Translations under genes and position numbers: made by a program
From: Eubacteriaceae bacterium
GTDB taxonomy: Bacteria; Bacillota; Clostridia; Peptostreptococcales; Anaerovoracaceae
Length of the DNA: 64,000 nt
Direction of reading: 5' to 3'
Assembly: GCA_034927505.1 (NCBI GenBank)
Contig: JAYFPY010000004.1
Location: forward strand, 13,735-77,734
In this document: one piece after another, positions 10,980 through 58,387 of the stretch
Position numbering within the stretch: the first letter of the stretch is position 1
How the letters are laid out: every line of letters starts with the position of its first letter
Notes under the pieces: model-generated
What the model was told of the DNA's origin: nothing
The model's database searches: none
The model's input: the letters and a program-made list of their open reading frames with translations, nothing else

Positions 10980-10993
<14 letters not shown>

Positions 10994-18079: not shown

Positions 18080-18082
18080 GTC

Positions 18083-19693
18083 CTACCTCTTTATGCGTTT
18101 TACACTGGACCATGATCCATATTTTTTGCTGCCTTTTACAGTTCTGTATGCACGGACCTTGAAATAGTATTTCTTTCCTTTTTTAAGCTTGCTGATGGTT
18201 TTCGATTTTGCGCTGTCTTTCTTGACATATACCGTTTTTCTGCTTTTAGTAATTTTTTTATTGGTTCCGTATCTGATCTGGTATCCGTATGCACCGCTTA
18301 CCTTTTTCCATCTCAGTAATGCACTTTTCCTGCCCTTCTTTTTCAGAGATGTGATCGAACTCTTGGAAAGCTGCGGTGTTTTTGATACGACGTTCCCGGT
18401 GCTGCTTTCCAGTGAAACAAAATTCTCTTTTTTAACGGCACTGATTTTATATGAATACTTTGTTCCTGTCAGCAGACTTTTGTCAATATATGAAGTAGAT
18501 GTGGTCTCTGCGATCTTGCTGTATCCGCCCTTGCCTGCCGCACGATAAACTGTATATCCGTCAGCTCCTGCCGATGCGCTCCATTTCAAAGATATACTGT
18601 TATATCTGCTGCCGGTCACTGATGTATTCGCAGGCGCTGACGGTGCTGTTGTTAGTTTCTCCGTATTCCAGATCACCTTTCCCGGTGTGAACAAAGCATA
18701 CTGCGATGTCTGTTCTGAAGGCGTATCCGTACTGTCTGAGAAGCCCCATGCCAGGAATGAAACCTTGATATCAGATCCTGTTATTACTGTCGTCTTCGAT
18801 GATGCCGCATCTGTCACAGCGATCTCGTTCCCCGTCACATTCATTTTCTCCATGACTTTTGTCAAAGGCAGGCCCGTGACATTATAACTGTTTCCTCCAT
18901 AAGAAAATTTGCTCTTATATATTCCCGCACGCAGGATCTCCTGTATATTCATATTCGAATATGAATCGTTCCCGTTTTTGAATATGCCGGTCTGGTCATC
19001 TACAATAATTGTGTCAACATACTTTCCATACAAACAATTGTTGTCTTCATCATACTTCTTCTGACCGAATACAAAGACATTCTCTCCTGCCGGCAGTCTT
19101 GTCACATCTCCCGGATCCTGCACGTCAGCAAAAGTCGACCCCATGCTGTCGGCCCTATAAAGAGCGATCAGCGGCACCCTGGTATTCTCACTTGCTGCTG
19201 TTGTATTCGGATGTGCAAAATAATATCTGTTTCCAAACACATTCTCTTCACCGGTGCTGCGAAGTATTCCGCTGTAACCGTCAGATGAATAATATGTCAA
19301 CTCCTTTACTTTGCCGGTATCTGTGCCCAGAGCAGCGATCATTTTTTTTACATCTATACCGCTTACTTTGCTGCGATGATAGTGCCCTGTTACTCCGTTT
19401 ATTTCACCATGAGGTTCGTGGGAGGAATAAATGGTATTTTCTGTCCAGCTTTCACCTATGTCATATCCGGAAACATTTTTGTTTGTTTTTATCGTTTCCA
19501 TTTCATCCTGTGTCAAATAGAAAACATTCCCCTGGAATCCTTCCTGCCCGGATATCCCTGATCCGCTGACTATCAGCCCCGGTGTCTCCGGCTCATCGGC
19601 AGCGTATCCTGTGCCGAAACTCATCGCCGCGACTACTGCCGCCGCAATCACTATCGCTAACGCTTTATTGATCATTCTTTTTAAAGACTTCAT
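18083..19693 (-). CDS. secreted surface protein: SUOX-like modules + FN3 + basic FN3-like tail
   Basis: Start at MKSLKRMINKALAIVIAAAVV (GGAG SD; the track start at 19735 lacks one). Motifs VSGIDVKKMI, SSDGYSG, PLIALYRA. C-terminus LRWKKVSGAYGYQIRYGTNKK...KKGKKYYFKVRAYRTVKGSKKYG. Confidence 0.75.
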   Translation of the reverse strand: MKSLKRMINKALAIVIAAAVVAAMSFGTGYAADEPETPGLIVSGSGISGQEGFQGNVFYLTQDEMETIKTNKNVSGYDIGESWTENTIYSSHEPHGEINGVTGHYHRSKVSGIDVKKMIAALGTDTGKVKELTYYSSDGYSGILRSTGEENVFGNRYYFAHPNTTAASENTRVPLIALYRADSMGSTFADVQDPGDVTRLPAGENVFVFGQKKYDEDNNCLYGKYVDTIIVDDQTGIFKNGNDSYSNMNIQEILRAGIYKSKFSYGGNSYNVTGLPLTKVMEKMNVTGNEIAVTDAASSKTTVITGSDIKVSFLAWGFSDSTDTPSEQTSQYALFTPGKVIWNTEKLTTAPSAPANTSVTGSRYNSISLKWSASAGADGYTVYRAAGKGGYSKIAETTSTSYIDKSLLTGTKYSYKISAVKKENFVSLESSTGNVVSKTPQLSKSSITSLKKKGRKSALLRWKKVSGAYGYQIRYGTNKKITKSRKTVYVKKDSAKSKTISKLKKGKKYYFKVRAYRTVKGSKKYGSWSSVKRIKR

Positions 19694-19766
19694 AATATTA
19701 TCTCCATAAGACCCTAATAGCCGATGAATTATCATCGGCTATCAGAGCAAATATACTGCTTTTTTA

Positions 19767-21431
19767 TTATTTCTTTTTTGTTTTGAAGGATTTTGTCTTT
19801 GACCATGAACTGTAGAATGTCTTTCCTTCTATCTTCTTATATGATCTGACTTTGAAATAATATTTTTTGTTTTTCTTTAGTTTCTTAACTGTCTTGGATA
19901 CTGTTTTTCCGCTCTTTATAGTGACAGTTTTTTTGCTCTTTGTTATCTTTTTATTTCTACCGTATCGGACCTGATATCCTGTTACAGATGATGCCTTTTT
20001 CCATCTCAGCTTTGCGCTTCTCTTCTTTACCTTTACAGCTTTTTTAACTGACGGTGCTGCAACATTTCCAACGGTTATGATGGCCTTTGCATTTTCTATC
20101 AGTGTAGGTTCTTTGCCGGATATCGGAGTGTAATCACTATCGCCGTCACTGGCTTCGACTTTTGCACTTGTCGTATCGACCAGGACTGAATGATCGTAAT
20201 TAACAGTTTTCCTGTTATAGTCCCATATGTTGCTTGATCTCTTCGACTGCTGATAGCTGTAAGCTACAAAATAGTTGTTTATAGAAGCAGTTATATCCTG
20301 CATGCTTCCGTCTGCCTTGATCACATATGCCTTCTGTCCCGCAGGCACAGTCAGCAGATCCTTCAGCCACTGTCCGTTGTATCTTACATACATAGGTTTG
20401 TTGTATCCCCAGTATTTGTTCGGACTTGCAGTCGGCTGTGCAGGTACCTGTGCAGAACCGTTTATCAGTTCCGATCTGAGCAGGCTTTTTGCTGTTCCGT
20501 TTATGTTCGTTTTAAAATACGGTGTCTCTGTCCAGTAGAATTCTACTGTCTGATCCTCTGCCTTTTCAGCAGCTTTTACAGATACGGAAACTCCGTTGAA
20601 TCCTCTGCTCTGTATTTTGCTCGACAGTTTTGCATATGCCAGATCCACTCTCGGTCTTGCAGGCCATCTCATTCCTGTCGGTACTCCGTATATATCTTTA
20701 TCGTCTGCTACCTGCATGCCGTAATCATCATCACTCATGCTCTTTTCGGTATATCCGCTGTCGCCTTTAAGAGTTTTACCGCTTTTACTGATCACAACTC
20801 CCATGAAATTTTTAAGTACTGATGAGTTGGCTGAGTTGGTCTGTCTGTAAGCTCTCAGCAGCGACGGTTCTACAAATGTTGTGAAATCATAGAACTGTGT
20901 ATCATTTACATTGTTTGCATCCGGCTTGTCATAAGTCATCTTGCACTGATATCCTATAATAGTCTCTTTCGGCGTGCTGCTCGTATCCGTCAAACTTTTG
21001 ACAGTATCTTTATAGCTGTCCTGAGTTGCATGGAATGCATCCTCTTCAGCGTACTGGATCATCCAGTCTTCATCGACCGTTACATCTTTCAGATCTGATA
21101 TCATATTTGAAAGCTTTGCACCTTTGATGGCTGCTGTTTCGCCTTCGCCATGATTGCCATAGTGATAGCCGACCTGATCGCCATAAGCTTTGATCTCGTC
21201 AAGTGTGTAGTAGTAGATCTTATCTGTGTCGCCGGTAACTGTTCCGTTATTGTCGGCATCAACTGCAATATAGAATACTGCATTTTTGATATTGGTCCCT
21301 GCTGTTGCCGGTGATTTCCCCGATGCTGCATTTGCTGTAGCAGTCTGCATAAAACCAAAACATGACATAACCATTGCCAGTGTCAATATGACGGCAATGA
21401 TTTTATTTCTTTTTGAACAAGTGATATCCAT
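19767..21431 (-). CDS. secreted surface protein with basic FN3-like tail
   Basis: A canonical signal peptide MDITCSKRNKIIAVILTLAMVMSCFGFMQTATANA begins at M41 of the track ORF, whose GTG at 21551 overlaps the upstream stop, so the start is uncertain. C-terminus LRWKKASSVTGYQVRYGRNKK...KKNKKYYFKVRSYKKIEGKTFY. Confidence 0.7.
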   Translation of the reverse strand: MDITCSKRNKIIAVILTLAMVMSCFGFMQTATANAASGKSPATAGTNIKNAVFYIAVDADNNGTVTGDTDKIYYYTLDEIKAYGDQVGYHYGNHGEGETAAIKGAKLSNMISDLKDVTVDEDWMIQYAEEDAFHATQDSYKDTVKSLTDTSSTPKETIIGYQCKMTYDKPDANNVNDTQFYDFTTFVEPSLLRAYRQTNSANSSVLKNFMGVVISKSGKTLKGDSGYTEKSMSDDDYGMQVADDKDIYGVPTGMRWPARPRVDLAYAKLSSKIQSRGFNGVSVSVKAAEKAEDQTVEFYWTETPYFKTNINGTAKSLLRSELINGSAQVPAQPTASPNKYWGYNKPMYVRYNGQWLKDLLTVPAGQKAYVIKADGSMQDITASINNYFVAYSYQQSKRSSNIWDYNRKTVNYDHSVLVDTTSAKVEASDGDSDYTPISGKEPTLIENAKAIITVGNVAAPSVKKAVKVKKRSAKLRWKKASSVTGYQVRYGRNKKITKSKKTVTIKSGKTVSKTVKKLKKNKKYYFKVRSYKKIEGKTFYSSWSKTKSFKTKKK

Positions 21432-21547
21432 CTCTTTTTGCACGGTCTCCCGTGCTCTCCTTTCCGTTATACAAAAGTAAAAATAACCATCCTGTTCGAT
21501 TCTATCAGAAAACTGCATTTTATGTCGTTGTTTGAGCAACACTTTAC

Positions 21548-22105
21548 TCACTTTTTACAAATTATTTTCACTAAATACTTCGTGCTCCTGTTTCCGTAGG
21601 TGTCTTTGGCAAAAATTACCTGCAGCGGACCGCTGCCGCCCTTGCTGTACTCGGTCAATGTCTTTCCATTTTTTGAATAAGCTGCAATGATATTATTCTT
21701 TTCTTTGATTTCTTTCTGTGATGCTGCAGAAGAGTAGCCGTCACCGGCTGTAAAAATAAATGTTTTATACTCTTTCACAAGATTCGGATCGGAATCATTC
21801 AACAGATCCATCACTGAAACTCCTGTAAATGTACCTTTTTCATCTGCTTTTGAGGAAGATTCAAGGTCGGCATATACATTTTCGCTTTCCAGTTTCCTGA
21901 TTTCTTTCATGGTATATTTTTTTATCGTTTTTGTTTTCCCTGCAGAGTTTTCGCCAGACACAGTCAGCACATTTTTCCCACCGCCGATACTGCTGCTGTT
22001 GTTGGTCATATTAACAGCAGCGGTAATAATGATCACCGCTGTCAGCACTGCAAAAAATATGATGACGGCTTTATTCCCCAGTTTCAGTTTTCTTCTCTTT
22101 TCCAC
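21548..22105 (-). CDS. membrane-anchored single SUOX/YedY-like module protein
   Basis: N-terminal TM helix (AVIIFFAVLTAVIIITAAV), then FTGVSVMDLL, AGDGYSS, IIAAYSKNGKTL, GPLQVIF, KYLVKI. This is the pattern of the Oxidored_molyb fold. Confidence 0.65.
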   Translation of the reverse strand: MEKRRKLKLGNKAVIIFFAVLTAVIIITAAVNMTNNSSSIGGGKNVLTVSGENSAGKTKTIKKYTMKEIRKLESENVYADLESSSKADEKGTFTGVSVMDLLNDSDPNLVKEYKTFIFTAGDGYSSAASQKEIKEKNNIIAAYSKNGKTLTEYSKGGSGPLQVIFAKDTYGNRSTKYLVKIICKK

Positions 22106-23275: not shown

Positions 23276-25354
23276 TTACTTGCTTACACTTATTTCTTTG
23301 ACATTCTTTACCCATCCGGATACCTGATTTTCCACTATCAGTCGCAGAGGGCCGAAACCGTTGCTCCCGTTGTATCCTTCAGATTTCTTTGTCGGCACCA
23401 GAGGAACTCCGTCTATACTGTAAGCTAAAATAATGTCCCTATGCTGACCTTCCTGATATCTGCTGTCTATTCCATTCCAGACATCATCGACCGGTATTTC
23501 TTTTTTATATCCATCCTGTCCGATCACAGTGATCCCTGCAGGTGTCTTTATTCCCTTTTTCAGATTTTTAGTGATCAACTTTTTCAAGACTGCCCCTTGA
23601 TATCCATTGCTTCCTGCCGATGCGGCAAAAGACTGTCTAACGGTATTTTTACCGGTCAATGCTTCGATTTCACTAAGTTTGTATGTTTTGCCTTCCACTG
23701 CAGATCCGCTTATTTTCAATTTCGTATCAAGGTACTTTCTGTAGTCTCCCTTGCTGTGAGTCCATTGTCCTTTATGTATGCCTACGTTCATGCTGTCCAG
23801 CTCATTTAGTTTGACAACTCCTGCCAGACATACAGAACCTTCTTTATCGGAAAGTGCTTTTCCGTTTTTACGTGTAGCAATTATGTAATTTCCATCTTTC
23901 AACGAGTTTAGTTTCAATTTTATTGTTTCATTATCATTTTCAAATGTTACTGAATATGCATCCACCGTCATGCCTGCATCCTGCAGCAGGTCGTAAACAG
24001 CGACTCCTGTATAGCCCTTTACAGTCTTTGTAATCTCCGGCATATTTTCCAATTCAGCCACGGAGTAAGTTATGCTGGTTTGTATCCCTTTGCCCTTTAT
24101 TGTTATCGTTTTCTCTGCATTGGGATTGTCGCTGAGTTTTTTCCCTGCATAGATATCGATAGAAATGCATTCCTTCTTTGTTGTTCCTTTTTTTATATCC
24201 TTTTTAGCAGGCAGTATAGCGTATATCCTGTCCTTCTCAGTAGGCTCTCCATCTATACTGTAAGCCAGGGCCGGCATCGTGCCCGTAATGGTTTTGCCGC
24301 TTTTTTTCGTAGTATAATCTTCACTGTCGCCCGACAGATTTCTCAGGTATTCCATGTCTATGGTCTCGCTGCTGCCGTCAGCAAAAGAAAATTTTACTTT
24401 TCCTTCCTGTGCGGCCAGATCTGCTTTCTCTTTGATATATCCCCACAGGTATGCACCTTCATAAAAGTTTTTTTCACCATAGTAATTCCTGATGCAGTTT
24501 CCCGTTTTTTTGGCAGCATACTTTTCTACATCTGCTATGGTACACCATGAACTGCTGAGTCTTTTGTTATTTGCATCTTTATCATAGACACTGATTTTTA
24601 CAGTCTTTTCTTCAGATGCTTTTTTGCTGTGCTGTGTATAATTCTTTTTTTTGCCGACGATTATTTTGCTTACCCATTTGACATTGTCCGGTGCATTATA
24701 CTGCTGTGGATCTGTCTGCCCTATTGTAAGTCTGACCGGCCCGCCGATATTGTCTGCATCTTTGACATATCCATCTTTTTCCGTCATTTTCTTGCCGATT
24801 TTCTGACTGCCTGTCGGGCCGACCAGCGGCACATTGTCGCTTCCAAAGGACAATAAAACCGGGACTCTTTTCCCTCTTGTTTTTTTTGCATCCATAGTGC
24901 TGTAATAATTGTACTTGTTTTTTTTGATTTCGCTGATCAAAATAGTTTTGGAATATCCATCTGTAGATACGATCGTAACAGGAGTATTTTTATCCAGATT
25001 TTTACTCATTCCCTGATCTACAAGAAATTCATACAATCTTGCTCCTGTAAAAGTTCTCTTTGAAAAAACTCCGCCGCTGGTCAAAAGGCTGTACTTTCCC
25101 GAGTATCCAATGTCGCTGTTTTCATATGCGGTTTCCTCAATATCTTTTACTGAACATATTTTTTCTTTGCCCATTCCTGTACCTGTAACAGTCACACTGC
25201 TGTACAGGTAATTCCCTGTTCCGTATTTCGACCCCTCGTCATCTGCATGATCTGTATGTGCCGCCTTTTTGTTCATGCATCCGCACATGCAGAGCAGCAT
25301 TATTATCAGTACAGTGATGACCGCAATGGCTGCCGCTTTCCTTTGTGTTTTCAT
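23276..25354 (-). CDS. lipoprotein with 3-4 tandem SUOX/YedY-like modules
   Basis: Lipobox-like LLCMCGC. Repeated motif sets: FTGARLYEFL/STDGYSK/GPVRLTIG/VKWVSKIIV; YTGVAVYDLL; YQGAVLKKLI/GQDGYKK/ILAYSIDGVPL/GPLRLIV/GWVKNVKEISV. Confidence 0.75.
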   Translation of the reverse strand: MKTQRKAAAIAVITVLIIMLLCMCGCMNKKAAHTDHADDEGSKYGTGNYLYSSVTVTGTGMGKEKICSVKDIEETAYENSDIGYSGKYSLLTSGGVFSKRTFTGARLYEFLVDQGMSKNLDKNTPVTIVSTDGYSKTILISEIKKNKYNYYSTMDAKKTRGKRVPVLLSFGSDNVPLVGPTGSQKIGKKMTEKDGYVKDADNIGGPVRLTIGQTDPQQYNAPDNVKWVSKIIVGKKKNYTQHSKKASEEKTVKISVYDKDANNKRLSSSWCTIADVEKYAAKKTGNCIRNYYGEKNFYEGAYLWGYIKEKADLAAQEGKVKFSFADGSSETIDMEYLRNLSGDSEDYTTKKSGKTITGTMPALAYSIDGEPTEKDRIYAILPAKKDIKKGTTKKECISIDIYAGKKLSDNPNAEKTITIKGKGIQTSITYSVAELENMPEITKTVKGYTGVAVYDLLQDAGMTVDAYSVTFENDNETIKLKLNSLKDGNYIIATRKNGKALSDKEGSVCLAGVVKLNELDSMNVGIHKGQWTHSKGDYRKYLDTKLKISGSAVEGKTYKLSEIEALTGKNTVRQSFAASAGSNGYQGAVLKKLITKNLKKGIKTPAGITVIGQDGYKKEIPVDDVWNGIDSRYQEGQHRDIILAYSIDGVPLVPTKKSEGYNGSNGFGPLRLIVENQVSGWVKNVKEISVSK

Positions 25355-25368: not shown

Positions 25369-26055
25369 TTATTTATTCAGTAGAATATACTTGTCTTTTT
25401 TAAAATCCAATATTCCTTCCCGCCTCATTTTGTTGAGTTCATTGGATAAAGCGGATCGGTTCACTGACAGATAGTTTGCCAGCTGATTCTGTGTCATCAT
25501 AATATGAAAACTGCCGCCGCCGTGTTTCTGCGACATTATCCTCAAATATGTCAGGACCCTGTCCCTCATACCTGCATGTGACAAAACATCTATTTTGTAT
25601 AATTTTTTAATGCTTTCATTCCCCAGTATATTTATTATGTTGCGCATTATGATGTTGCGGTATGAACACGTAAGAAGTCTGTCTCCGTTTATGGCCAAAA
25701 TGACCGCTTCTTCAGAAGCTGCCACAAAGGTCACCGGCGAGATCTTGCTTTCAGTTGAAACATTGTCCAAACTTATGATTTCACCCTGTTCATGCATATC
25801 CACAAGATGTATTTCACCTTCCATATGGAATTTCTCACTCCGTATACTGCCGTTGATCACTATTCCTATATCGGTTTCTTCTTCACCTTCATGAATAATG
25901 ATCGCATCTCTTTTATATTCTTCAAATGTAGGTGCGAGCTCATCACAAAGAATGCTGCACTCCGCTTCAGTAAGACCTTTGAACAGCGGTGCCTGCCTCA
26001 AATATCTTATTAAAGATTTTTTACTAATTTCTTTTTCCATAACGTAATGAATCAT
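25369..26055 (-). CDS. Crp/Fnr family transcriptional regulator
   Basis: cNMP-binding-like N-domain (LFKGLTEAECSILCDEL...IIHEGEEETDIGIVINGSI) and a C-terminal HTH (TQNQLANYLSVNRSALSNELNKMRREGIL). AAGGAG SD before the ATG at 26055. Confidence 0.85.
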   Translation of the reverse strand: MIHYVMEKEISKKSLIRYLRQAPLFKGLTEAECSILCDELAPTFEEYKRDAIIIHEGEEETDIGIVINGSIRSEKFHMEGEIHLVDMHEQGEIISLDNVSTESKISPVTFVAASEEAVILAINGDRLLTCSYRNIIMRNIINILGNESIKKLYKIDVLSHAGMRDRVLTYLRIMSQKHGGGSFHIMMTQNQLANYLSVNRSALSNELNKMRREGILDFKKDKYILLNK

Positions 26056-26130
26056 CAAACTCCTTAATGCTTCATTATACCTCAGTTTCTCGGGAACGAA
26101 TGTTGTTTGAACAATATTTTTGACAATAGT

Positions 26131-26619
26131 TTACTTTTTGAACTGTATTTTTACGATCATTTTAGTCCAATCACTGGATTTTCCGTCCGGTATCAGCAGC
26201 CTAAGCGGTTTTTCAGAATCATTCAGCGCTTTTTCCCCATTGGCAACCGACAGTATTATCGAATCATGATTTGTTAAATAACTATTGTCCAAAACCGTTG
26301 TATACCCGTCTGAAGCAATGAAAATGATTTCGTCATAGTCGGTCTGTCCATGGCCATATTGTTCCAGAAAGGTATCCAGTGTGGGTCCGACAGCCGTAAC
26401 AGTTTTTTTCGTGGATTCCACTTCCCCCGAAGCTTTTGTACATTTCAGGTCCGCAAGTTGATCCGGAGTGATTTTAAAAGCTTTGTCTTTTATCCCCGTT
26501 ATCTGTATCTCTGTTTTGCCGTAGTCGGAAATATCAGCTGTGACCTCTGCACTGCAGCCTGCTGCAATACAGGACAAGATCATGATAAGGATCAGCAATA
26601 CCGCTTTTTGTTTTCTCAT
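26131..26619 (-). CDS. lipoprotein with a single SUOX/YedY-like module
   Basis: Lipobox IAAGC, then AVGPTLDTFL, ASDGYTT, IILSVANGEKAL, KPLRLLIP, DWTKMIVKIQF. Confidence 0.7.
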   Translation of the reverse strand: MRKQKAVLLILIMILSCIAAGCSAEVTADISDYGKTEIQITGIKDKAFKITPDQLADLKCTKASGEVESTKKTVTAVGPTLDTFLEQYGHGQTDYDEIIFIASDGYTTVLDNSYLTNHDSIILSVANGEKALNDSEKPLRLLIPDGKSSDWTKMIVKIQFKK

Positions 26620-26936
26620 TTGTTTTTCCCTTCGACTTTCACGTAGTATTTGCCGGTATCCGGATCCTGATATACAACTCCTTTTTCCTGAAGGCCGCTG
26701 TTGTTTTCTACTTCTTCTACCTGTTTGTCGTTCAGGTTTTCTGCATTATTGAGTTCTTCAACGTTCTGTACAGATGTTACGTCAACGTTCCAATGCATTA
26801 TCAGCGCCAGCATTATACCTACCGCCAAAATAAGCATGGCATCTACCAGATTTGATACTCCATCCATCGGATTTACATCTTCCTGGCTTTTTCTGGATGC
26901 GGTCGACAATCTTCCGCTGCCAAATCGTCTAAGCAT
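26616..26936 (-). CDS. ExbD/TolR-like (DUF2149-like) single-pass membrane protein
   Basis: Start at ATG 26936 (GGGAGGAG SD, 8-nt overlap with the upstream gene). Basic N-terminus, then EDVNPMDGVSNLVDAMLILAVGIMLALI with an Asp at the start of the TM helix, then a small periplasmic-type C-domain. Confidence 0.7.
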   Translation of the reverse strand: MLRRFGSGRLSTASRKSQEDVNPMDGVSNLVDAMLILAVGIMLALIMHWNVDVTSVQNVEELNNAENLNDKQVEEVENNSGLQEKGVVYQDPDTGKYYVKVEGKNK

Positions 26937-27570
26937 CTTTCTCCTCCCGGTTTTCTTCTTCAAGTACGCATTCCATCAAGGTCTCAAGCACTGACATATA
27001 ATTACTGTACCAGGTTTTTCTGATCGATGAAATCAGCAGTGCTATAGCTGCTGCTGCGAGACCTGCGATCGTTGTATCAAATGCCGTCAGCAGTGACTGC
27101 GACAATGTATTCGTATCACCCTGTCCCAGCGCAATGATCCCCGGCCCGAGCGGGATCAATGTACCTAAAAGACCCAGCATCGGTCCTATTTTAGCAATAA
27201 AATCTGTTACCTTGACACGTCTGTCATATATGGCCTGCTCTTCGCTCAAAAGCCTTATTGCCAGACTCTCCCGCATTGTACTGCTCAAATTACTATGCCT
27301 TGTCAATTCCAGCAGTGCAGCCTTTTGTCGTTTCAACAGGTTTCCTTCTTTGATCGTTTGGTTTATTTCTTTTGACTCATCTCTGATGTCATCCACCATA
27401 TGCGGCATGTCAGCCTTCAAATATCTCCTTTCGGTAAATACCTCCGCTATGATCGTTCCTATCAGCACCACTGTTGCTGCCAGTAAAATTATCAACAATA
27501 TTATTACCGGCCATCTCAGTCCTTCCGAGACACTTCTCAATACATCACTAAAACTACTTAATGAAAACAT
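26929..27570 (-). CDS. MotA/TolQ/ExbB proton-channel family protein
   Basis: 213 aa. N-terminal TM helix, cytoplasmic helical insert, then the family signature PMLGLLGTLIPLGPGIIALG...LLTAFDTTIAGLAAAAIALLI. Confidence 0.8.
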   Translation of the reverse strand: MFSLSSFSDVLRSVSEGLRWPVIILLIILLAATVVLIGTIIAEVFTERRYLKADMPHMVDDIRDESKEINQTIKEGNLLKRQKAALLELTRHSNLSSTMRESLAIRLLSEEQAIYDRRVKVTDFIAKIGPMLGLLGTLIPLGPGIIALGQGDTNTLSQSLLTAFDTTIAGLAAAAIALLISSIRKTWYSNYMSVLETLMECVLEEENREEKDA

Positions 27571-27580: not shown

Positions 27581-29059
27581 TCATCCTTTCCGTTTTAAAA
27601 TAATATCTGCAATACTTCTCTTTCCCGCAGAACGTCTGAAAAACAATATTTCTCCAATTACTCCGCCGCCCAGCAGCAGTCCGGCGGCAGCGGCAGTCAA
27701 CCCGTTCAGTCCTGATTCGGATGAAAAATCCACAGAAGCATTTTCCGGATCGAATTCTACCCATTGGTTTCCTGTTGAGTTCTTACTGTCATTGCTTTCG
27801 AAAGCTTTGTTCTCAGCCTGAGCAATTGCATTCGATGTCTTTTTATCTGCGATCTTCAACCCTCTGTTTTGATTTTGATTTCCGTTATCACCTTTCTGAT
27901 CATTGCTGCCATCGCCCTTCTTCTTATTGCCAGTTCCATTGTTCCCTTTTTTATCATCGTCATTATTTCCTGTGCCGCCTCCTCCATTTCCGGGATCTTT
28001 CTTGTTGTCAGAGTCGTCTGACCCTATCCCTGTCATCCCGGCCTGTGAAGACGCTGTTGTCTGTCCGCTGTATTCCTTTCGAGTATATGAAAACTGCATA
28101 GAAGTATCTCCTTTTCCGACGATTTCCACCTGACACTTTCCATCCTTCAGCATGGATCCTTCAGCCAGTCCGGTAACACTGACAATACTATTGTCGTATC
28201 CTGATACCTTGATATTTGAAAGCACCTGCTTTTTCAAAGCTGCCAGTGATTCTTTCGATAAATAGCTATAGGACTCAGGCAATGATACTGTACATGTCAG
28301 CTGATACTTGCTGCCTTTTTTATCCTTGCTGCCCGAGATCAATTTTTTTTCGATTTTGAGACCGGGACTGCCCTTGAGTTGCACTTCCATCTCGTATACC
28401 CATTTTCCGCTGCTTTGTACATTTTCACTGCCATCGTCAGTTTGACCATATATCAGTCGATATTGAAAATCTTTTGGCAGATCTCCCGTGCTGTACTGCT
28501 TGTAGCTGCCTCCCTGGTTTATCCGCAGTGCTTCGTCTCTGCTGAATTCAGTACATGCTATTGCAAGGATAGTAGGAACGGATTCTGCACCCGCTCCGTA
28601 TTTGGAAAAGCTGAAATCAGAGATCTGACCGTTGGACGGCATCTCTCTTGCCTGGTTTGGCAAATAGTATCTGCTTTTCAAAAGATCGTTGGCCGAAAAA
28701 GTCGTAGTGGATTCCCCGTAGTTGTCCGATGTTTTCATATGCAGATAGTTGACAGATCCCAGATCGATGTTGCAGTCGTTTATCAGGTTTTCCAGACTGG
28801 GCCCCCATCCGTAGCAAACGCGTGCAAAATGCCCGCTGTCTATCCCTGAATATGTGTATATTTCTGTACCGGCCAAATTTTTCATATCGGTCTCGGTGTA
28901 ATTTCCAACTTCGTAATACGGGCCTCCATAGAATCCTGCACTTATTTTTAGATTTCCTGCCTCCGCCTTCTGCGGTATCAACAGGCATGTCAAAATGAAC
29001 ATTAAAATAACTGCAGCGGCAATCGTTCTTTTTCTTTTTTGATGATTGTTTCTAACCAT
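27581..29059 (-). CDS. exported, C-terminally membrane-anchored protein with SUOX-like N-domain and G/N/D/K low-complexity linker
   Basis: Start taken at MVRNNHQKRKRTIAAAVILMFIL (29059), because the track start at 29101 sits inside a terminator hairpin. Signal peptide ends ...QKAEA. Motifs GWGPSLENLI, TSDNYGE, PTILAIA, YRLIYGQ, KWVYEMEV. An approximately 60-aa GNGGGGTGNNDDDKKGNNGTGNKKKGDGSNDQKGDNGNQNQN linker. C-terminal TM helix LTAAAAGLLLGGGVIGEILFF followed by RRSAGKR. Confidence 0.7.
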   Translation of the reverse strand: MVRNNHQKRKRTIAAAVILMFILTCLLIPQKAEAGNLKISAGFYGGPYYEVGNYTETDMKNLAGTEIYTYSGIDSGHFARVCYGWGPSLENLINDCNIDLGSVNYLHMKTSDNYGESTTTFSANDLLKSRYYLPNQAREMPSNGQISDFSFSKYGAGAESVPTILAIACTEFSRDEALRINQGGSYKQYSTGDLPKDFQYRLIYGQTDDGSENVQSSGKWVYEMEVQLKGSPGLKIEKKLISGSKDKKGSKYQLTCTVSLPESYSYLSKESLAALKKQVLSNIKVSGYDNSIVSVTGLAEGSMLKDGKCQVEIVGKGDTSMQFSYTRKEYSGQTTASSQAGMTGIGSDDSDNKKDPGNGGGGTGNNDDDKKGNNGTGNKKKGDGSNDQKGDNGNQNQNRGLKIADKKTSNAIAQAENKAFESNDSKNSTGNQWVEFDPENASVDFSSESGLNGLTAAAAGLLLGGGVIGEILFFRRSAGKRSIADIILKRKG

Positions 29060-29146: not shown

Positions 29147-32100
29147 CTATTTTACTTTTACAGTCTTGATAGAAGACCATCCGCCATAGACTTTTGTTTT
29201 ATTTACTGTACGGTAAACTCTTACTTTTACGTAGTATTTTTTACCTTTTTTCAGCTTGGTTTTTTTGTAGCTTTTTTTGCTTACCGGCAATGTTTTGACT
29301 ATTTTTGTCTTCTTCTTGGAAGTCGATATGGAAACCTGATATTTTGAAGCTCCTTTTACTTCCTTCCATGACACTGTCAGCTTTTTCTTACCTGCTTTTG
29401 TTTTGATTTTTGTCTTTGCAGGTGTCGGTCTAAGCCCTTTCACTTCCGAATAATTTCCGTAAACTGTGTGTGTCTGAGCCTTTGAATCTGAATACGTATT
29501 GAACGCTCTTACTTTGTAGTAATACGTTGTTCCGCACTGCAGACCTGTCTGGCTCAAAGAAACTGTCTTTGGATCACTTATTTTTGATATCAGTGAATAT
29601 GTTCCGTTCGCACTGGTCGATCGATACACTTCATAACCCTGTGCGGCACTGACCATATTCCATGACACTTTACCGCTATTGTACGAGGTTGCTGTTGCTG
29701 TCACTGTTATCGGTGAAGCCACCTTTACGCTGGCCAGCTGTGCTTTCAGATCGTCGATCTCATCTAGCTGCATCTGACTGTTTTTATCAGCTTCTTCCAA
29801 TTTTTCCTGAAGATCTCCCATTCCGCTATAGAACCAGTCTGACCATTCCCATGTGAACTGTGGATATCCGGATGTGTCCGTATAGGCTTCACCCAAAGTC
29901 CCCGCCAGTACTTTCAGTTCGTCTGATGTCTTTACTGCCGAATTGTCAGTTACTGTTGCTGCTGCTGAATTTCCTCCAACGGACGATGCTGCTGTACCTG
30001 TCAGATAGAATGTATTGCTTATGCTCGCATCCTTAGGCGTATATCCCATTATCGATCCGGTTTTTACAGTTCCGTTACTGCCCGTTACAATTCCTGCATT
30101 ATAGCAATTCGTCATGTCTGTCACATAATTGCCCTGTGTCCCGACTATTCCGCCGACACCCTGTGTTGCGCTTCCTTCTGAAGCAGTTACTGCACCCAGG
30201 TTGAAACAATTTGTAGTTGTTTTTATATATCCTGTCCCATATATTCCGCCTACTGAATAAGTCCCCTTTACTTCGCCAGTGTTGTAAAGATTGTCAGCAG
30301 TACCGCTTGGCGAAGCATAGTTTCCGGCAACTCCTCCTATATTGCTGGTTCCGCTTATATCTCCGGTATTGCCGCACTTGTACACTGCCTCTCCTGCATT
30401 TCCGACTATTCCTCCGATATTTCCGGCCGTGGCTGTTACATCTCCATTGTTGATGCAATTAGTAACAGTAGTTTTATTGCTCTGTCCGATTATTCCTCCG
30501 ATAAACGAAGTGCCCGCAACCTTTGCAGTATTCTTGCAGTTGATGACCTTTGAAGCATTCGAGCTCCCTACTCCTACAATTCCTCCAGTCTGTGATGATC
30601 CGCTGACTGATGCTCGGTTTATACATCCGGAAACTGTTCCGCTGCCGTAGATCTGTGCAACAATACCTCCGGTATATGATGCTGTAGATTTTACATTCCC
30701 CGAAGTAATTACATTTTTTACCGCACCATTGCTTAATACTCCTACCAACCCTGTATACGCTGTTGTAGAATCCATTCCCATTTTAATGGTTTTACCGCTT
30801 CCGTCAAAAGTTCCATTGTAATAAAACTGCTTTGAATAGTACGGTTTTTTTCCATTGCCGGTCTCTATCGTTATACTCAGTGTTCTTCCTATTGGCGTAT
30901 ACTTTATCTCGGAAAGGTCTATATTCTTTGTTACCTTTGCATTGATATCTGTCTTTCCCATTTTTCCTACCATATCGGAAAATGCCTGTAGCTCTGATGC
31001 ACCTGTAATAAGATATGTGCCCGCTGCGTCCTGTTTCGGTGCATTGGTCATGTCCAACGCTTCCACCTTTATGGTGTCGCTCTTTGTCGTATCTTTATAC
31101 TTGTAACTTACCGTAATGGTATTCGTCCCTGTTGTCAGTGCTGTGTCTGTACACGTGAAACCCTCCGTAAGGGCCTCGGTCTTTCCATTTGTATAGCTTA
31201 CCGTCAGCTTCATGTCTTTTGAGTCGAATTTCTCACCTGCCGCATAGTACATTTTAGTAGGTGCAGTTGTTATACCTACTGAGTCCAGCTGATTTTCTGT
31301 AACCGTTATATTAGTATCAAAGGAAAAATCTTTTCCTTCAAAAGTACCGCTGACAGTTTCTTTTGTATCTGTCGGTTTCAGCTCATCAGTGTTGCTTATC
31401 TTATAATCTACCGCAGTCAAATTCTGAGTAGTACCGTCGCTGTATGTTGCTGTCAGCACCATTCCGGCATCACTGAATGTCTGTCCTTCGACATAGTCAG
31501 TTTTTGTCGGCTGACTTTTCATCTCCACTTTCGTGACCGTAGCTGTACTGTCCGACTGCCACCTGAGTATCGGATAGCCATTATTTACGTTAGTTGCCTT
31601 GTCAGCAACATATGCGCCGCCCAGATCCGTCAGGAATGATGCCGCCTTCATTTCAGCATCTGTTTTCCTGATACCGTTTCTTGCAGTATCTCCTTCAAAA
31701 TCTTTATAATATGCGATCGTATCCAATGCATAATTGTTTACAAGAGTTGTTGTTGCATCTCCTCTTGGTGCAATTGCACAGTAGTCCTTATATCCTTGGT
31801 ATATGGTCCCAACAGTATAGCAGTTAGTTACAGTTGAAGATTTACTTGTGAATCCGGTTATCCCTGCTATCCATCGACTGTCGAAGTAATTTGGCGTGGC
31901 CTCAAGTGCTTTTGTGTTTACTGCACCGGTGTTATAACAGTTCACTATGTGGCCGTTTCCCCATTCAGTATTATTACATCCTGTTCGCCCTGCAATACCT
32001 GCCTGTCCATTGCCGCTGCCGCTGAACTGTGTATATATATTTCCGTGATTATAACATTTTGAAACGGTACCTTCGGTCTCTCCGACGATACCTCCGATCT

Positions 32101-33331
32101 TTTTATATGACTTGATGAATCCCTCATTGCCGCATTCAGTGATGAGTCCTTCAGCTCCATCTATTGTTCTGTTGATATCCTTGCCGGTTGTAGAATCTCT
32201 CCATTTTTCTGCAGCATTGAATCCGGCGATCCCGCCGACATTACCCGACCACAATGCTGTCAAAGCCACTTTTGATATTACCCTTTTGATAGTGCCGCAG
32301 TTGAATCCGGCAACGCTGCCTACAAAATCCGATGTAGGATCTACACCCGTGCTTTTGCCTTCAGTAGATGTACATGTTACCGCTCCTATAACCGTAAGAT
32401 TTTCTATTGTCCCGGCGTTGAAACCGAACAGACCTGTGAAATTAGGTTCTGCTCCGTCAACTGTCTTCGCATTAATATTAAGATTTTTTATCGTTTTACC
32501 GTTACCGTCAAAGGTGCCTTTGAATTTATAAGTTGCAGTTCCGTCTTCCAGTTTAGCACCGCCGCCTATCGGCGTGAACTCCTTGTCATTGAGATCGATG
32601 TTCTTTGACAGTTTTATGTATTTCCCATCGAAAGTGTTCCCGCTGTTTACCTGCGATGACAGATAAGCCATATGTGTGCCATTTGATATGATATAAGGAT
32701 CTGCCTCGGTCCCTGTTCCGGATTCAAATCCGGTCCCTGCGGTTCCATCCCACTCATTTTTTGAAACGGAAATGGTGGTTTTCTCTGTGCTGAAAAGACC
32801 GCTGATCCAGTTTGTTTTATTAAAGTCCTTCGTTCCCGTTTGACCGTATACCAGCATTCCTGTATCTTTTGTAATTATTGGATCCACTTTGACTTTTGTA
32901 TCGTCATCGACCAGCGCTCCGTCCTTCAAAGTAAACGAATATCGATCTGTTCCAAACAGCTCTTTTACCGTCATATCTCTGGAAACGTCATCCGCTGCAG
33001 ATTTAACAGTTATTATCTGCTCTTCATCCAGTTTTGATACATCTATATTCGCCTTTGCAAGAATATCCGCAAGTTTAACTCCTGTATATTCGCTGCTGTC
33101 TACGCCCTTCTTATTTAGCGAACTGTATGTTGCAGTTACAGGTGTCAGGGAATTATACATATCCTCCGTAACTGTTGCAGTATCGCTTCCGTATGCGATT
33201 TTCAATTTTGCAGTGTCATCTGCCGAAGCTTTCGATGTCATGCCTGCAAACAGCGACATTATCATTACTAAAGTAATGAACATCGCTAACATTTTCTGAG
33301 ATTTCTTTCTCACAGTATTATCTGTGTACAT
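29147..33331 (-). CDS. giant secreted surface protein (SUOX-like N-module, GLUG-type repeats, Big_3-like Ig domains, FN3, basic FN3-like tail)
   Basis: Start at ATG 33331 (AAGGGAG SD). Signal peptide MLAMFITLVMIMSLFAGMTSKASA. YTGVKLADIL module. More than 15 G-G-I-[AV]-G repeats (GGIAGFN, IGGIVGET, TGGIVGVG, IGGIIGQS...). Three Ig-like repeats (TKTDYVEGQTFSDAGMVLTATYSDGTTQNL). Coiled coil, FN3, and C-terminus VSWKEVKGASKYQV...KKGKKYYVKVRVYRTVNKTKVYG. Confidence 0.8.
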   Translation of the reverse strand: MYTDNTVRKKSQKMLAMFITLVMIMSLFAGMTSKASADDTAKLKIAYGSDTATVTEDMYNSLTPVTATYSSLNKKGVDSSEYTGVKLADILAKANIDVSKLDEEQIITVKSAADDVSRDMTVKELFGTDRYSFTLKDGALVDDDTKVKVDPIITKDTGMLVYGQTGTKDFNKTNWISGLFSTEKTTISVSKNEWDGTAGTGFESGTGTEADPYIISNGTHMAYLSSQVNSGNTFDGKYIKLSKNIDLNDKEFTPIGGGAKLEDGTATYKFKGTFDGNGKTIKNLNINAKTVDGAEPNFTGLFGFNAGTIENLTVIGAVTCTSTEGKSTGVDPTSDFVGSVAGFNCGTIKRVISKVALTALWSGNVGGIAGFNAAEKWRDSTTGKDINRTIDGAEGLITECGNEGFIKSYKKIGGIVGETEGTVSKCYNHGNIYTQFSGSGNGQAGIAGRTGCNNTEWGNGHIVNCYNTGAVNTKALEATPNYFDSRWIAGITGFTSKSSTVTNCYTVGTIYQGYKDYCAIAPRGDATTTLVNNYALDTIAYYKDFEGDTARNGIRKTDAEMKAASFLTDLGGAYVADKATNVNNGYPILRWQSDSTATVTKVEMKSQPTKTDYVEGQTFSDAGMVLTATYSDGTTQNLTAVDYKISNTDELKPTDTKETVSGTFEGKDFSFDTNITVTENQLDSVGITTAPTKMYYAAGEKFDSKDMKLTVSYTNGKTEALTEGFTCTDTALTTGTNTITVSYKYKDTTKSDTIKVEALDMTNAPKQDAAGTYLITGASELQAFSDMVGKMGKTDINAKVTKNIDLSEIKYTPIGRTLSITIETGNGKKPYYSKQFYYNGTFDGSGKTIKMGMDSTTAYTGLVGVLSNGAVKNVITSGNVKSTASYTGGIVAQIYGSGTVSGCINRASVSGSSQTGGIVGVGSSNASKVINCKNTAKVAGTSFIGGIIGQSNKTTVTNCINNGDVTATAGNIGGIVGNAGEAVYKCGNTGDISGTSNIGGVAGNYASPSGTADNLYNTGEVKGTYSVGGIYGTGYIKTTTNCFNLGAVTASEGSATQGVGGIVGTQGNYVTDMTNCYNAGIVTGSNGTVKTGSIMGYTPKDASISNTFYLTGTAASSVGGNSAAATVTDNSAVKTSDELKVLAGTLGEAYTDTSGYPQFTWEWSDWFYSGMGDLQEKLEEADKNSQMQLDEIDDLKAQLASVKVASPITVTATATSYNSGKVSWNMVSAAQGYEVYRSTSANGTYSLISKISDPKTVSLSQTGLQCGTTYYYKVRAFNTYSDSKAQTHTVYGNYSEVKGLRPTPAKTKIKTKAGKKKLTVSWKEVKGASKYQVSISTSKKKTKIVKTLPVSKKSYKKTKLKKGKKYYVKVRVYRTVNKTKVYGGWSSIKTVKVK

Positions 33332-33418
33332 CTTTTCTCCCTTCATTTTACAATCTGTTTTGCAAATCTATCAATAATTCTTAAGACTTAATCAGACTGA
33401 CATTATACTTCATCATTC

Positions 33419-57096: not shown

Positions 57097-57258
57097 CTAA
57101 AAATCTGCATAGGTAAATGTCGGCGCATTTGACATATTCGCATATATCACATAGCAGTAAATCACTATCATGAGAGCAAGGAACATCCCGGTATATACCA
57201 GATATTCCTTGCTTATTTTTTTAGTTGTTTTCTTTAGAAAACTTATAAATTTCTTCAT
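57097..57258 (-). CDS. dltX: DltX-like small membrane protein (53 aa, below the ORF-track cutoff)
   Basis: Manual translation: MKKFISFLKKTTKKISKEYLVYTGMFLALMIVIYCYVIYANMSNAPTFTYADF*. It has a basic N-terminus, one TM helix, and a C-terminal F-x-Y-x-x-F that matches the DltX FIYNEF tail. The start overlaps the last 38 nt of dltD in another frame, with AAAGG upstream. Confidence 0.55.
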   Translation of the reverse strand: MKKFISFLKKTTKKISKEYLVYTGMFLALMIVIYCYVIYANMSNAPTFTYADF

Positions 57259-58387
57259 TGACCTTTACCCAGCCTTTCCCGCTGTAGTGTACTGCATCCT
57301 GCATAAAATACGGCGTATATTCATATTTTGAAAGATCCGCTGTCTTTGCGCCATATTCTTCAGCCAGAGCAGCTGTCTTTTTATAGAACGCCTCCCGTCC
57401 TTCCTTTGGAAAGCCGGTATAATCATACCAGTAACCGTTGACCGGCGGCAGTATGAGCAGCGGTTCTATATTTCTCTCCCTGCACAGTTCAAGAAATATT
57501 TTCAGATCGTCGTATTCCGGGGAACTCCCGTAAGATCTCCCCTTGTCGGAATCCTTTTTCTTTTTCATGATCCGCAGTATTTTTTTCCTGAAAGTTTTAT
57601 CTCTCATATAGAACTGATTGGTGGACCTTTTCTTTTCGTATTGATCCGCTTCGCCCTCCAGCAGCTTCCAGTCGGGGCTTTCTCCGGATATGGCTTTTTC
57701 ACTTCCTTTTTTTATCCGGCTGGATCTCATTGCAGTCAGTACGCACAGCCGATCTTTCTCACTGACGAACAGGCCACGCATACGACATGATATTTTATCC
57801 CAGGGATTGCCTCTTTTGTACAGATACACTTTATTGTATTTTTTGACCCTGGCCTTCAAAGTCGCATCCTTCGACAACAGTTTTTCCGTCCGGTCAGCTA
57901 TGCTTTTTCGCAGGGAAAAAGACAATCTGCTGTTCTGAAGCATCGCCGTGTAATCGCTTTCGGAAAATCTCAGTGCAAATGCTTCGGGGCGCACTCCTTC
58001 TTTGTTGAACCACTGCGGGGATACGATCAGTACTACTTTTCTCTTTTTCATGCTTCGTTCAAGGCCTCCGAGAGCAATTGTATGAGTAAGGCTCTGAGAA
58101 AAAGCCGACCCCATGATCATAGGTGTTACATCCTGATCCTTGAACACTTTTTTCGGATAGAATGGTGTTTTCACGCTATGGTTGAATTCTGAAGATCCAA
58201 ACGTGAGTATGGTTTTATTATCCAGGTTGGAAGCTACTGCATCATGACTGGCGTATTTATAGAGATTGTTCCACGTTCCCATTTGAGAAGTCCTGGTATT
58301 GATCTGCTTTACTCCATACACATGCATTCCTGCAACAACAGCAGTAAACATTATCAGCGCCGTGAGAAAAGCCGCTATTTTTTTCAT
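57221..58387 (-). CDS. dltD: D-alanyl-lipoteichoic acid biosynthesis protein DltD
   Basis: N-terminal anchor, with FGSSEF and VSPQWF motifs. Position after dltC. Confidence 0.9.
   Translation of the reverse strand: MKKIAAFLTALIMFTAVVAGMHVYGVKQINTRTSQMGTWNNLYKYASHDAVASNLDNKTILTFGSSEFNHSVKTPFYPKKVFKDQDVTPMIMGSAFSQSLTHTIALGGLERSMKKRKVVLIVSPQWFNKEGVRPEAFALRFSESDYTAMLQNSRLSFSLRKSIADRTEKLLSKDATLKARVKKYNKVYLYKRGNPWDKISCRMRGLFVSEKDRLCVLTAMRSSRIKKGSEKAISGESPDWKLLEGEADQYEKKRSTNQFYMRDKTFRKKILRIMKKKKDSDKGRSYGSSPEYDDLKIFLELCRERNIEPLLILPPVNGYWYDYTGFPKEGREAFYKKTAALAEEYGAKTADLSKYEYTPYFMQDAVHYSGKGWVKVNEEIYKFSKENN

Follow-up and report, generated by a model that had tools for sequence, protein, structure and literature searches.

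We examined a window of 64,000 nucleotides from a Eubacteriaceae metagenome-assembled genome (class Clostridia) that carries a translationally coupled pair of genes, one for an ExbB-like membrane protein of the MotA/TolQ/ExbB family and one for a small protein of the DUF2149 family. Our reading is that the pair is a Ton-like motor working on a tail-anchored surface protein, its client, within an uptake relay for a cargo related to molybdenum or tungsten (Mo/W), and we give this whole statement a probability of about 0.5. The evidence consists of family assignments, fold, conserved residues, gene coupling, synteny, and riboswitch association, in the window and in 88 related loci (84 of them non-redundant). 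In these loci, which are designated by L numbers (e.g. L001), we called open reading frames (ORFs), searched with hidden Markov models (HMMs) of both proteins, and clustered all of the neighbours.

The ExbB-like and DUF2149 proteins

The first gene of the pair (26929..27570, minus strand) encodes the ExbB-like protein of 213 amino acids, the predicted wheel subunit of the motor, which has the channel signature stretch GLLGTLIPLGPGIIALG...FDTTIAGLAAAAIALLI. The second gene (26616..26936, minus strand) encodes the DUF2149 protein of 106 amino acids, which starts MLRRFG, has its membrane-helix Asp within the stretch SNLVDAMLILAVGIM, and is the predicted axle subunit, equivalent to ExbD. The two genes overlap by 8 nt, and the gene for a 492-amino acid upstream protein (UP; 27581..29059, minus strand) ends 10 nt before the ExbB-like start. 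This arrangement had been described in the original prediction, and its coordinates and signature stretches were confirmed. The longest ORF of the DUF2149 gene begins with a TTG at 26963 and would yield 115 amino acids. We take the ATG at 26936, which gives the 8-nt overlap, as the start because the M[LI]RR N-terminus is kept in thirty-three homologues.

The assignment of the 213-amino acid protein to the MotA/TolQ/ExbB type held up. Pfam places it in MotA_ExbB (PF01618; E = 4.1e-12; 46.4 bits, cut-off 22.9), and the best solved relative of a profile of thirty-two homologues is E. coli ExbB (5sv0; E = 4.7e-6, residues 19-201 on 23-215), with MotA at about 1e-3 and TolQ at 0.07. Matches of this profile to Staphylococcus protein A repeats (E = 5e-9) were disregarded as a helical repeat on the cytoplasmic helices. 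An AlphaFold2 model (pLDDT 84) has membrane helix 1, a long cytoplasmic helical domain, and a hairpin of membrane helices 2 and 3, as in the ExbB-type fold. Foldseek matched the model to E. coli ExbB chains with a probability of 1.00 and a TM score of 0.66-0.71 over about 206 of the 213 residues; the TM scores were 0.36-0.50 for TolQ and 0.57-0.62 for MotA/PomA. As modelled, the protein thus has the ExbB fold over its full length. T137 and T167 are invariant across the thirty-two homologues and align by profile with T148 and T181 of E. coli ExbB, the threonines facing Asp25 of ExbD in the Ton motor. We also looked for fusions of the two proteins among long homologues (275-318 amino acids), and their extra residues proved to be cytoplasmic C-terminal extensions, not fusions. 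Low-complexity or helical extensions of 60-100 residues occur in homologues P0020, P0021, P0065, P0070, P0094, and P0107.

The DUF2149 protein matches its Pfam family (PF09919, COG4744) with E = 3e-9 and 37.5 bits (cut-off 27.1), as do all thirty-three homologues. It is laid out as a basic N-terminus, one membrane helix with an invariant Asp32, a variable acidic linker, and a conserved C-terminal hairpin of about 20 residues, G-x-V-Y-x-D-x-x-T-G-K-Y-Y. P23, M24, D32, W49, G86, and D91 are invariant across the thirty-three homologues, with P23 and M24 just before the helix and W49 after it. Like ExbD and TolR, the protein has an N-in helix with an Asp near its cytoplasmic end and a gene directly 3' of the ExbB-like gene. 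The helix aligns in register with that of E. coli ExbD, placing D32 on D25, though this match is weak (E = 0.009, probability 4.6). The original prediction had called the second protein ExbD-like, and its topology, gene position, and invariant Asp agree with this, while the ExbD family match and ExbD periplasmic domain are missing. We call it ExbD-equivalent because of its topology, membrane Asp, and gene coupling, not as a member of the ExbD family. On this comparative evidence, DUF2149 is the predicted missing small subunit of Gram-positive ExbB-family proteins.

The pairing recurs widely. The DUF2149 gene directly follows the ExbB-like gene in 85 of the 88 loci, and the gaps, measured from longest-ORF starts, are mostly small overlaps, with -4 the commonest value. 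Such recurrence in related loci means that the pairing is not due to chance. Both proteins also have counterparts in the Hmu loci of Prevotella nigrescens and Bacteroides finegoldii. The window ExbB-like protein is 27% identical to Prevotella HmuU (E = 2e-25), and the DUF2149 profile matches Prevotella HmuV with a probability of 96.6 in hhalign; the hairpin and the DPM...D...H[YW] features are common to DUF2149 and HmuV. Prevotella hmuU and hmuV have the same gene order as the window pair and overlap by 4 nt. MotA/TolQ/ExbB plus DUF2149 is the annotation of HmuU plus HmuV, whose genes close the heme operon hmuYRSTUV of Bacteroidota (PMC11681262, PMC10434189). HmuT, HmuU, and HmuV have been termed uncharacterised (PMC13227078), and in the scheme of one group HmuU/V energise HmuR, the receptor in the outer membrane (PMC12583661). 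In one methanogen group, a TolQ-family gene is linked to COG4744/arCOG03208 (DUF2149) in 41 of 48 genomes (PMC9425974), and the pair is therefore found in other organisms without an outer membrane. Judged by sequence, the window pair belongs to this HmuU/HmuV (TolQ plus COG4744) subfamily, which is catalogued and functionally uncharacterised. As a family the pair is already known, and its occurrence in monoderms can be read from databases. We found no paper that accounts for this occurrence, and none linking DUF2149 or ExbB to Gram-positive uptake or to the riboswitch of the molybdenum cofactor (Moco).

A word-indexed search returned 3594 relatives of the ExbB-like protein, and the named ones come from Eubacteriaceae, Mogibacterium, Clostridiales, Oscillospiraceae, and metagenome-assembled genomes of Bacillota. 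A scan of species representatives, with one genome per species, found at least 547 stretches with the subfamily. Taxonomy was taken from the best 80 of these, which are mostly from Clostridia (Anaerovoracaceae, Mogibacterium, Oscillospiraceae, Lachnospiraceae, Peptococcaceae, Thermacetogenium, and Dethiobacter) and Coriobacteriia (Eggerthellaceae, Senegalimassilia, and Paratractidigestivibacter). Two of the best 80 records, one a Bacteroidaceae bin and the other a Hallerella bin, are named as diderms, and mis-binning of contigs is possible. Some genomes contain two copies (L004 and L071 share one contig, as do L049 and L075). The DUF2149 profile found 594 clusters (50% identity) among 1.84 billion representatives. 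The original description of a stator pair with no obvious known client held up, and the pair is neither an orphan nor unique to this genome. None of the HMMs searched assigned it to a characterised non-stator family, an assignment that had been named beforehand as refuting. We regard it as very probable that the pair is a motor.

The tail-anchored protein, its modules, and the Mo/W link

UP is predicted to be exported by Sec and tail-anchored at its C-terminus, and we propose it as the client of the motor. In the AlphaFold2 model, a domain with the sulfite-oxidase (SUOX) fold and an Ig-like domain (about residues 35-345) are followed by a linker of about 105 residues, a membrane helix (454-477), and a basic tail. 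The ectodomain is confidently modelled, and the linker is disordered and rich in G, N, D, and K. The top Foldseek matches of the ectodomain are the sulfite dehydrogenase SorT (E = 7.6e-4, probability 0.91) and YedY (probability 0.93).

A member of the UP family, 350-780 amino acids in length, lies directly upstream of the pair in fifty-eight of the eighty-four loci, usually 0-30 nt from the ExbB-like gene or overlapping it. Of the sixty-seven distinct upstream proteins with at least 300 amino acids, sixty-one have an N-terminal hydrophobic signal and sixty have a hydrophobic segment in the last 70 or so residues that is followed by at least two K or R. The C-terminal 70 residues of the upstream proteins can be aligned. 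Before the helix, the motifs (GG)VQNWRVYEMSE.A.EL, ASMNTHQEEMD.DAEQL, or, in the window's clade, WV.FD are recurrent, and the cytoplasmic end of the helix has a recurrent G-G/A-x3-[R/E]-[I/F]-x-[K/R]-[F/Y]-[R/K]. Taken at face value, these recurrent motifs exceed what a generic anchor would need. The 492-amino acid protein, the lipoproteins, and the ECF complex had all been named as candidate clients. Comparative genomics favours the first, whose family is co-conserved with the pair in 58/84 loci and whose tail-anchor architecture is shared by sixty of the sixty-seven upstream proteins. We think it reasonably likely that the tail-anchored protein is the motor's client.

Profiling the co-occurrence of the pair with SUOX-like modules, as had been suggested, identified the module in 141 proteins from sixty-six of the eighty-four loci using an iterative HMM. 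These include fifty-eight of fifty-nine UP-family members and eight proteins of the window. Many of the modules, at about 100-140 residues, correspond to roughly half of the Moco domain in Pfam, and the cysteine at the Mo-ligand position of the SUOX family is not invariant in the UP alignment. The proteins have Sec or lipoprotein signals rather than twin-arginine signals (a loose twin-arginine pattern is present in 6/59 UP and 4/35 lipoprotein signals), so the SUOX-fold modules are presumably cofactor-free at export.

The canonical gene order of the related loci is [multi-SUOX]-FecCD-ABC-PBP-UP-ExbB-like-DUF2149-SUOX lipoprotein, where PBP is the class-III binding lipoprotein. The FecCD permease is present in 39/84 loci, the binding lipoprotein in 42/84, and the ABC ATPase in 43/84. 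A SUOX-like lipoprotein of about 165 amino acids comes just after DUF2149 in 35-37/84, and twenty-five of thirty-five such proteins have a lipobox. Less frequent neighbours are a Crp-family regulator (15/84), aldehyde:ferredoxin oxidoreductase (13/84, often with a ferredoxin), XdhC (9/84), NTPase_1 (9/84), and an ECF S-component (8/84). The ECF importer variant is found in the window and in L001, L009, L015, L018, L034, L045, and L076, and is thus in the minority relative to the FecCD type. The surface-protein and ECF-importer setting noted in the original prediction is indeed that of the window, but in its relatives the commonest partner is a FecCD-type ABC importer. Large surface or SLH proteins are encoded in 49/84 loci. 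In one locus (L006), the pair, a SUOX-like lipoprotein, and a tail-anchored protein of the Big_2 type have as their neighbour a 700-amino acid protein (5560-7662) that bears a Shr-like hemoprotein-interacting domain (PF07550); the module may therefore serve differing cargos by lineage, heme included.

Riboswitches tie the system to Mo/W. We scanned thirty-one loci and the window with Rfam, and ten loci have a Moco/Tuco (molybdenum or tungsten cofactor) aptamer, RF01055, on the operon strand with scores of 40.6-72.2 bits (gathering score 36). In nine of the ten, the aptamer is at the 5' end of the gene string containing the pair: L071 3575-3688 (= L004 20152-20267), L048 3273-3406, L036 3240-3375, L084 2513-2632, L050 5509-5661, L033 6577-6714, L019 5265-5386, L072 7678-7807, and L076 300-436. 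The tenth, L057 11530-11649, is placed between the SUOX lipoprotein gene, which it closely follows, and a gene for a surface protein. The riboswitch is followed in L071 by NTPase_1, a gene for a 509-amino acid protein, FecCD, ABC, PBP, UP, ExbB-like, DUF2149, and the SUOX lipoprotein. In L048 the order is riboswitch-PBP-UP-ExbB-like-...-FecCD-ABC, and in L019 it is riboswitch-UP-ExbB-like-DUF2149-SUOX lipoprotein. L076 is an ECF-type locus of Dethiobacter with the aptamer at the head of the operon. An nhmmer profile made from the ten copies and run over all loci found no further convincing copy. A P3-like insert is present in five copies and missing from the other five, and Regulski et al. associated the P3-less form with the tungsten cofactor (PMC2408646). 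The Moco motif is found ahead of genes for molybdate transporters, for Moco biosynthesis, and for enzymes that use Moco (PMC2408646); since it precedes several gene classes, the riboswitch ties the operon to the Mo/W cofactor economy without saying which role the operon plays in it. In relatives of the window, then, the aptamers as annotated connect the system with that economy. The recurrent aldehyde:ferredoxin oxidoreductase, XdhC, and NTPase_1 genes, the MobB gene beside the window's cluster, and the SUOX-fold modules speak for the same link. For the family as a whole, we lean towards a Mo/W-related cargo, and for the window's own ECF-type locus we consider such a cargo an even call.

The gene cluster and host of the window

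The genes on both sides of the pair belong to a same-strand array (all minus). Its first gene encodes a surface protein of 1399 amino acids (29147..33346) with Big_3 and fn3 domains (Pfam) and a lysine-rich C-terminus. An N-terminal SUOX-like module in this protein was seen by eye, and the iterative HMM did not detect it. Ahead of the gene is a strong promoter-like site at 33663-33635, and between the two, within the intergenic leader (33347-33717), is a hairpin of 12 bp with a T-run at 33450-33423 (minus strand). No Rfam family matched the leader (33300-33720) at E <= 10, and the hairpin may be an attenuator or a regulatory RNA of a new type.

Downstream of the pair, the gene for a 162-amino acid lipoprotein with one SUOX-like module (26131..26619; Pfam Oxidored_molyb, E = 3e-6) overlaps the DUF2149 gene by 4 nt, pointing to translational coupling. 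It is followed by genes for a Crp/Fnr-family regulator (25369..26058; cNMP_binding and HTH_Crp_2), a secreted protein of 692 amino acids in which the iterative HMM found four SUOX-like modules (23276..25354; Oxidored_molyb, E = 1.7e-14), a 199-amino acid SUOX-like lipoprotein (23263-22664; Oxidored_molyb), an ECF S-component (22667-22071; ABC_cobalt, PF09819, E = 1.7e-16), and a 185-amino acid SUOX-like protein (22105-21548; Oxidored_molyb). Three fn3 surface proteins of 594, 550, and 537 amino acids (16466..21551), each with a SUOX-like module by iterative HMM, come next. The array continues with two ECF ABC ATPases (16464-15787 and 15806-15153; both ABC_tran) and an ECF T-component fused to a purple-acid-phosphatase-like metallophosphoesterase (15169-13286; CbiQ, Pur_ac_phosph_N, and Metallophos). 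The same fusion recurs in L001 (16496-18355), the window's closest ECF-type relative, and would suggest that the substrate is dephosphorylated, or a dinucleotide cleaved, at the transporter. L001 also has an S-component (ABC_cobalt, PF09819) fused to a SUOX-like module in a protein of 362 amino acids (14091-15179), which directly links the surface modules to the importer, and it is flanked by XdhC genes.

Three genes adjoin the cluster on its other side, encoding an NTPase_1 protein (33718-34335, plus strand), a DUF364/DUF4213 'putative heavy-metal chelation' protein (34308-35039, plus strand), and MobB (35040-35786, minus strand). The next same-strand gene after the cluster encodes an aldo/keto reductase fused to a 4Fe-4S dicluster domain (11576-13003, minus strand). 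A complete V/A-type ATPase operon (subunits I, c, E, C, A, B, and D identified) occupies 2675-10993 (minus strand), 2 kb past the end of the ECF genes, and may bear on whether the motor uses H+ or Na+. A secreted subtilase of 1236 amino acids with Kelch repeats (51221-54931, minus strand) is unrelated to the motor finding.

With dltA (61301..59814), dltB (59814..58648), and dltD (58387..57221) on the minus strand of the window, a monoderm, teichoic-acid-bearing envelope is a reasonable reading of the host, in agreement with its class and with the original prediction. A Pfam scan of fifty of the larger ORFs in the window likewise bore out that these include no TonB, Tol/Pal, flagellar, or gliding genes, and it gave no match to a TonB (N-terminal anchor, Pro-rich spacer, and TonB_C) or to a TonB-dependent transporter.

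Proposed mechanism, parallels, and alternatives

In the mechanism we propose, five ExbB-like chains would form a ring and two DUF2149 chains would supply its central helices, with the ion-binding Asp32 of DUF2149 facing Thr137 and Thr167 of the ring. The motor would dock the tail-anchor helix of UP, its juxtamembrane motif, or both, and ion flow would pull or twist the tether of about 105 residues, much as Ton pulls TonB. At full extension this tether could measure as much as roughly 35 nm, a length on the scale of a Gram-positive wall. By this movement, the surface SUOX-like modules would be made to release a tightly bound ligand, or to hand it over, to the importer lipoprotein or S-component, and the receiving importer would be of the ECF type in the window and of the FecCD type in most relatives. 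The cargo is probably Mo/W-related, be it an oxyanion, a Mo/W chelate, or the pterin cofactor itself.

One close precedent is the Ton system, which shares with the window the full-length ExbB fold, the conserved pore threonines, and a small one-helix partner with an Asp. Both also have a third one-helix protein (UP in the window) with a long flexible spacer and an outer domain facing the ligand, and both are operonic with FecCD-type importers for scarce nutrients. In contrast to Ton, the window has no outer membrane or TonB-dependent transporter, and DUF2149 has no ExbD periplasmic domain or ExbD HMM match. UP differs from TonB in having no TonB C-terminal domain, in being anchored at its C-terminus rather than its N-terminus, and in carrying the binding domain itself. 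TolQ-TolR-TolA and MotA-MotB/PomA-PomB belong to the same superfamily, with a presumed ring-and-axle logic and the Asp on the small subunit, but they are a poorer fold match, and the window pair has no peptidoglycan-binding domain, plug, or flagellar or Pal/TolB partners. The methanogen TolQ plus COG4744 pairs combine the same DUF2149 family with a TolQ-family gene in hosts without an outer membrane.

Bacteroidota hmuYRSTUV has the same two Pfam families in the same order and with the same translational coupling as the window pair, and HmuV resembles the window DUF2149 protein in its DPM motif, membrane Asp, and C-terminal G-x-x-Y...G...Y hairpin. Ahead of the pair, both systems encode an extracytoplasmic metal-cofactor protein with a C-terminal anchor. 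In Hmu this is HmuS, a CobN-like heme dechelatase (L088 3257-7666, L089 3559-7641) encoded just before hmuTUV, with an N-terminal signal or anchor, a C-terminal membrane helix, and a poly-Arg/Lys tail. Chelatases of the CobN type usually depend on AAA+ partners, and for an extracytoplasmic HmuS without ATP, an ion motor would be an attractive substitute. The window differs from Hmu in its monoderm host without an outer membrane, in an anchored partner with a SUOX fold rather than a chelatase, and in regulation and neighbours that point to Mo/W, not heme. HmuY, the TonB-dependent HmuR, the CobN-like HmuS, and the polytopic HmuT are absent from the window and from the eighty-four Firmicute and Coriobacteriia loci, and HmuT, a multi-helix protein of about 232 amino acids, is unlike the product of the window's upstream gene.

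The relay itself finds a functional analogy, and no more than that, in the Isd/NEAT system with which Gram-positive cocci relay heme, where many copies of one binding module on differently sized and anchored proteins are combined with an ABC importer. In the related loci the carriers of the module include giant wall proteins, mid-size proteins, lipoproteins, and membrane-tethered proteins, which suggests a hand-over across the thick wall. The window differs from Isd in having a module with the SUOX fold, not NEAT, and probably a Mo/W-related cargo, and no ion-driven motor is part of the Isd relay.

Several observations weigh against the motor, its client, or its cargo as we describe them. At E <= 10, the DUF2149 profile found no ExbD, TolR, or MotB in the PDB, only chance matches to the hairpin, and Pfam ExbD (PF02472) was matched by none of the thirty-three DUF2149 members. 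The alignment with the ExbD helix reaches a probability of 4.6, and an extracellular hairpin takes the place of the folded periplasmic domain of about 70-90 residues found in ExbD and TolR. The UP helix runs N-out/C-in, opposite to the N-in/C-out helix of TonB. An HMM of the tail anchor scores about 0 bits on HmuS and HmuT, and because of this the Hmu parallel is architectural only. The 5:2 assembly, the contact between motor and tail anchor, and the direction of energy flow are matters that we infer. As for the cargo, Rfam found no Moco riboswitch in the window itself, and among the seven other ECF-variant loci scanned, one (L076) has it. The riboswitch alone does not prove a Mo/W cargo, because the motif also precedes genes for Moco-using enzymes (PMC2408646). 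Neither the binding protein nor the ECF S-component has an informative match to proteins of known ligand: the nearest PDB relatives of the binding protein are unnamed structural-genomics entries, HI_1472 (MolA) is distant (4e-5), and its weak NCBIfam matches to IsdE, BtuF, and siderophore-binding proteins are not decisive, while the S-component has no PDB relative.

One alternative is that the pair, possibly with the tail-anchored protein, is not an energiser of receptors and would itself be an ion-coupled gate or permease for the cargo in the cytoplasmic membrane, the role that some authors give HmuTUV in Porphyromonas. The pair is embedded in importer operons, and reviews propose that HmuT/U/V move heme or iron across the inner membrane (PMC12094164, PMC13227078). 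We consider this unlikely. A complete ATP-driven importer (FecCD+ABC+PBP or ECF S/T/A/A') usually lies alongside, the known ExbB-fold proteins conduct ions rather than solutes and the ExbB fold is full-length here, and the Firmicute loci have no polytopic partner like HmuT.

The SUOX-like surface proteins could also be genuine Mo enzymes, a set of extracytoplasmic oxidoreductases whose consumption of Moco would account for the riboswitch, with the motor assembling, positioning, or regulating them and the importer taking up a product or an unrelated nutrient. Cofactor-loaded enzymes are normally exported by Tat, and against this stand the Sec and lipoprotein signals of the SUOX-like proteins, the scarcity of even a loose twin-arginine pattern, the half-length modules, the variable Mo-ligand cysteine, and the co-operonic import systems. 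The modules are nevertheless true homologues of the SUOX family (Oxidored_molyb, with SorT and YedY fold matches), and Moco riboswitches are known upstream of Moco-using enzymes (PMC2408646). On balance, an enzymatic role for these proteins seems quite unlikely.

Very unlikely, in our view, is a Tol-like housekeeping role, in which the motor would organise or anchor large wall proteins (SLH, fn3, Glug, and Big) or remodel the wall and have no direct part in nutrient capture. TolQRA is a precedent for a non-transport role of this class of motor, and more than half of the loci encode large surface or SLH proteins. The neighbours that recur most constantly, however, are the importer genes and the tail-anchored SUOX-like protein; no single family of surface proteins is as constant. 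Control by a cofactor riboswitch suits a nutrient system rather than housekeeping, and the pair is accessory, sometimes duplicated beside a second importer (L004/L071 and L049/L075).

That the pair is a flagellar or gliding stator out of its usual place, or an anti-phage motor of the Zorya type, is scarcely credible despite the shared superfamily and a weak ZorA match (E = 0.0049, 13.6 bits), as the 213-amino acid protein has no ZorA tail and fits ExbB better than MotA/PomA, Pfam finds no MotB/OmpA-like peptidoglycan-binding domain in DUF2149, no flagellar, gliding, or Zor genes turned up among the window ORFs scanned or in the loci, and PADLOC assigned no defence system (the ZorA match being sub-threshold and its partners unmatched).

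Set against these alternatives, the Ton-like motor with a tail-anchored client remains our preferred reading, and a more general version of it can be proposed tentatively, although we rate it as rather doubtful. HmuU/HmuV-type motors would be a general ATP-free drive for extracytoplasmic, tail-anchored proteins that deal with metal cofactors. In Bacteroidota, and perhaps in archaea, such a motor would act on a CobN-like dechelatase, and in monoderm Clostridia on a receptor with the SUOX fold. In the window, a wall-spanning relay of cofactor-free SUOX-fold modules would then capture environmental Mo/W cofactor or molybdopterin and pass it to the ECF or FecCD importer, salvaging Moco or Tuco. 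If true, this would be the first pathway for Moco/Tuco salvage in bacteria and, in Gram-positive bacteria, the first uptake system energised in a Ton-like manner.

New in this analysis are DUF2149 as the proposed ExbD-equivalent, the conserved tail-anchored SUOX-fold partner, the linkage to FecCD and ECF importers, the battery of SUOX-like surface modules, and the control by Moco/Tuco riboswitches. ExbB-family proteins in Gram-positive bacteria are an acknowledged puzzle, and with the DUF2149 subunit, a tail-anchored candidate client, and the wiring to importers and riboswitches, what was an annotation oddity becomes a testable system. The chances are about even that it is a Ton-like motor fitted to a cell wall with no outer membrane around it, whose client is new and whose cargo probably belongs to a new class. 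Similar logic may account for the HmuTUV half of the heme operon of Bacteroidota, an operon abundant in the human gut, and for the TolQ plus DUF2149 pairs of methanogens. If the cargo is a Mo or W species, the finding has a bearing on the competition for these trace metals among anaerobes of the gut and rumen.

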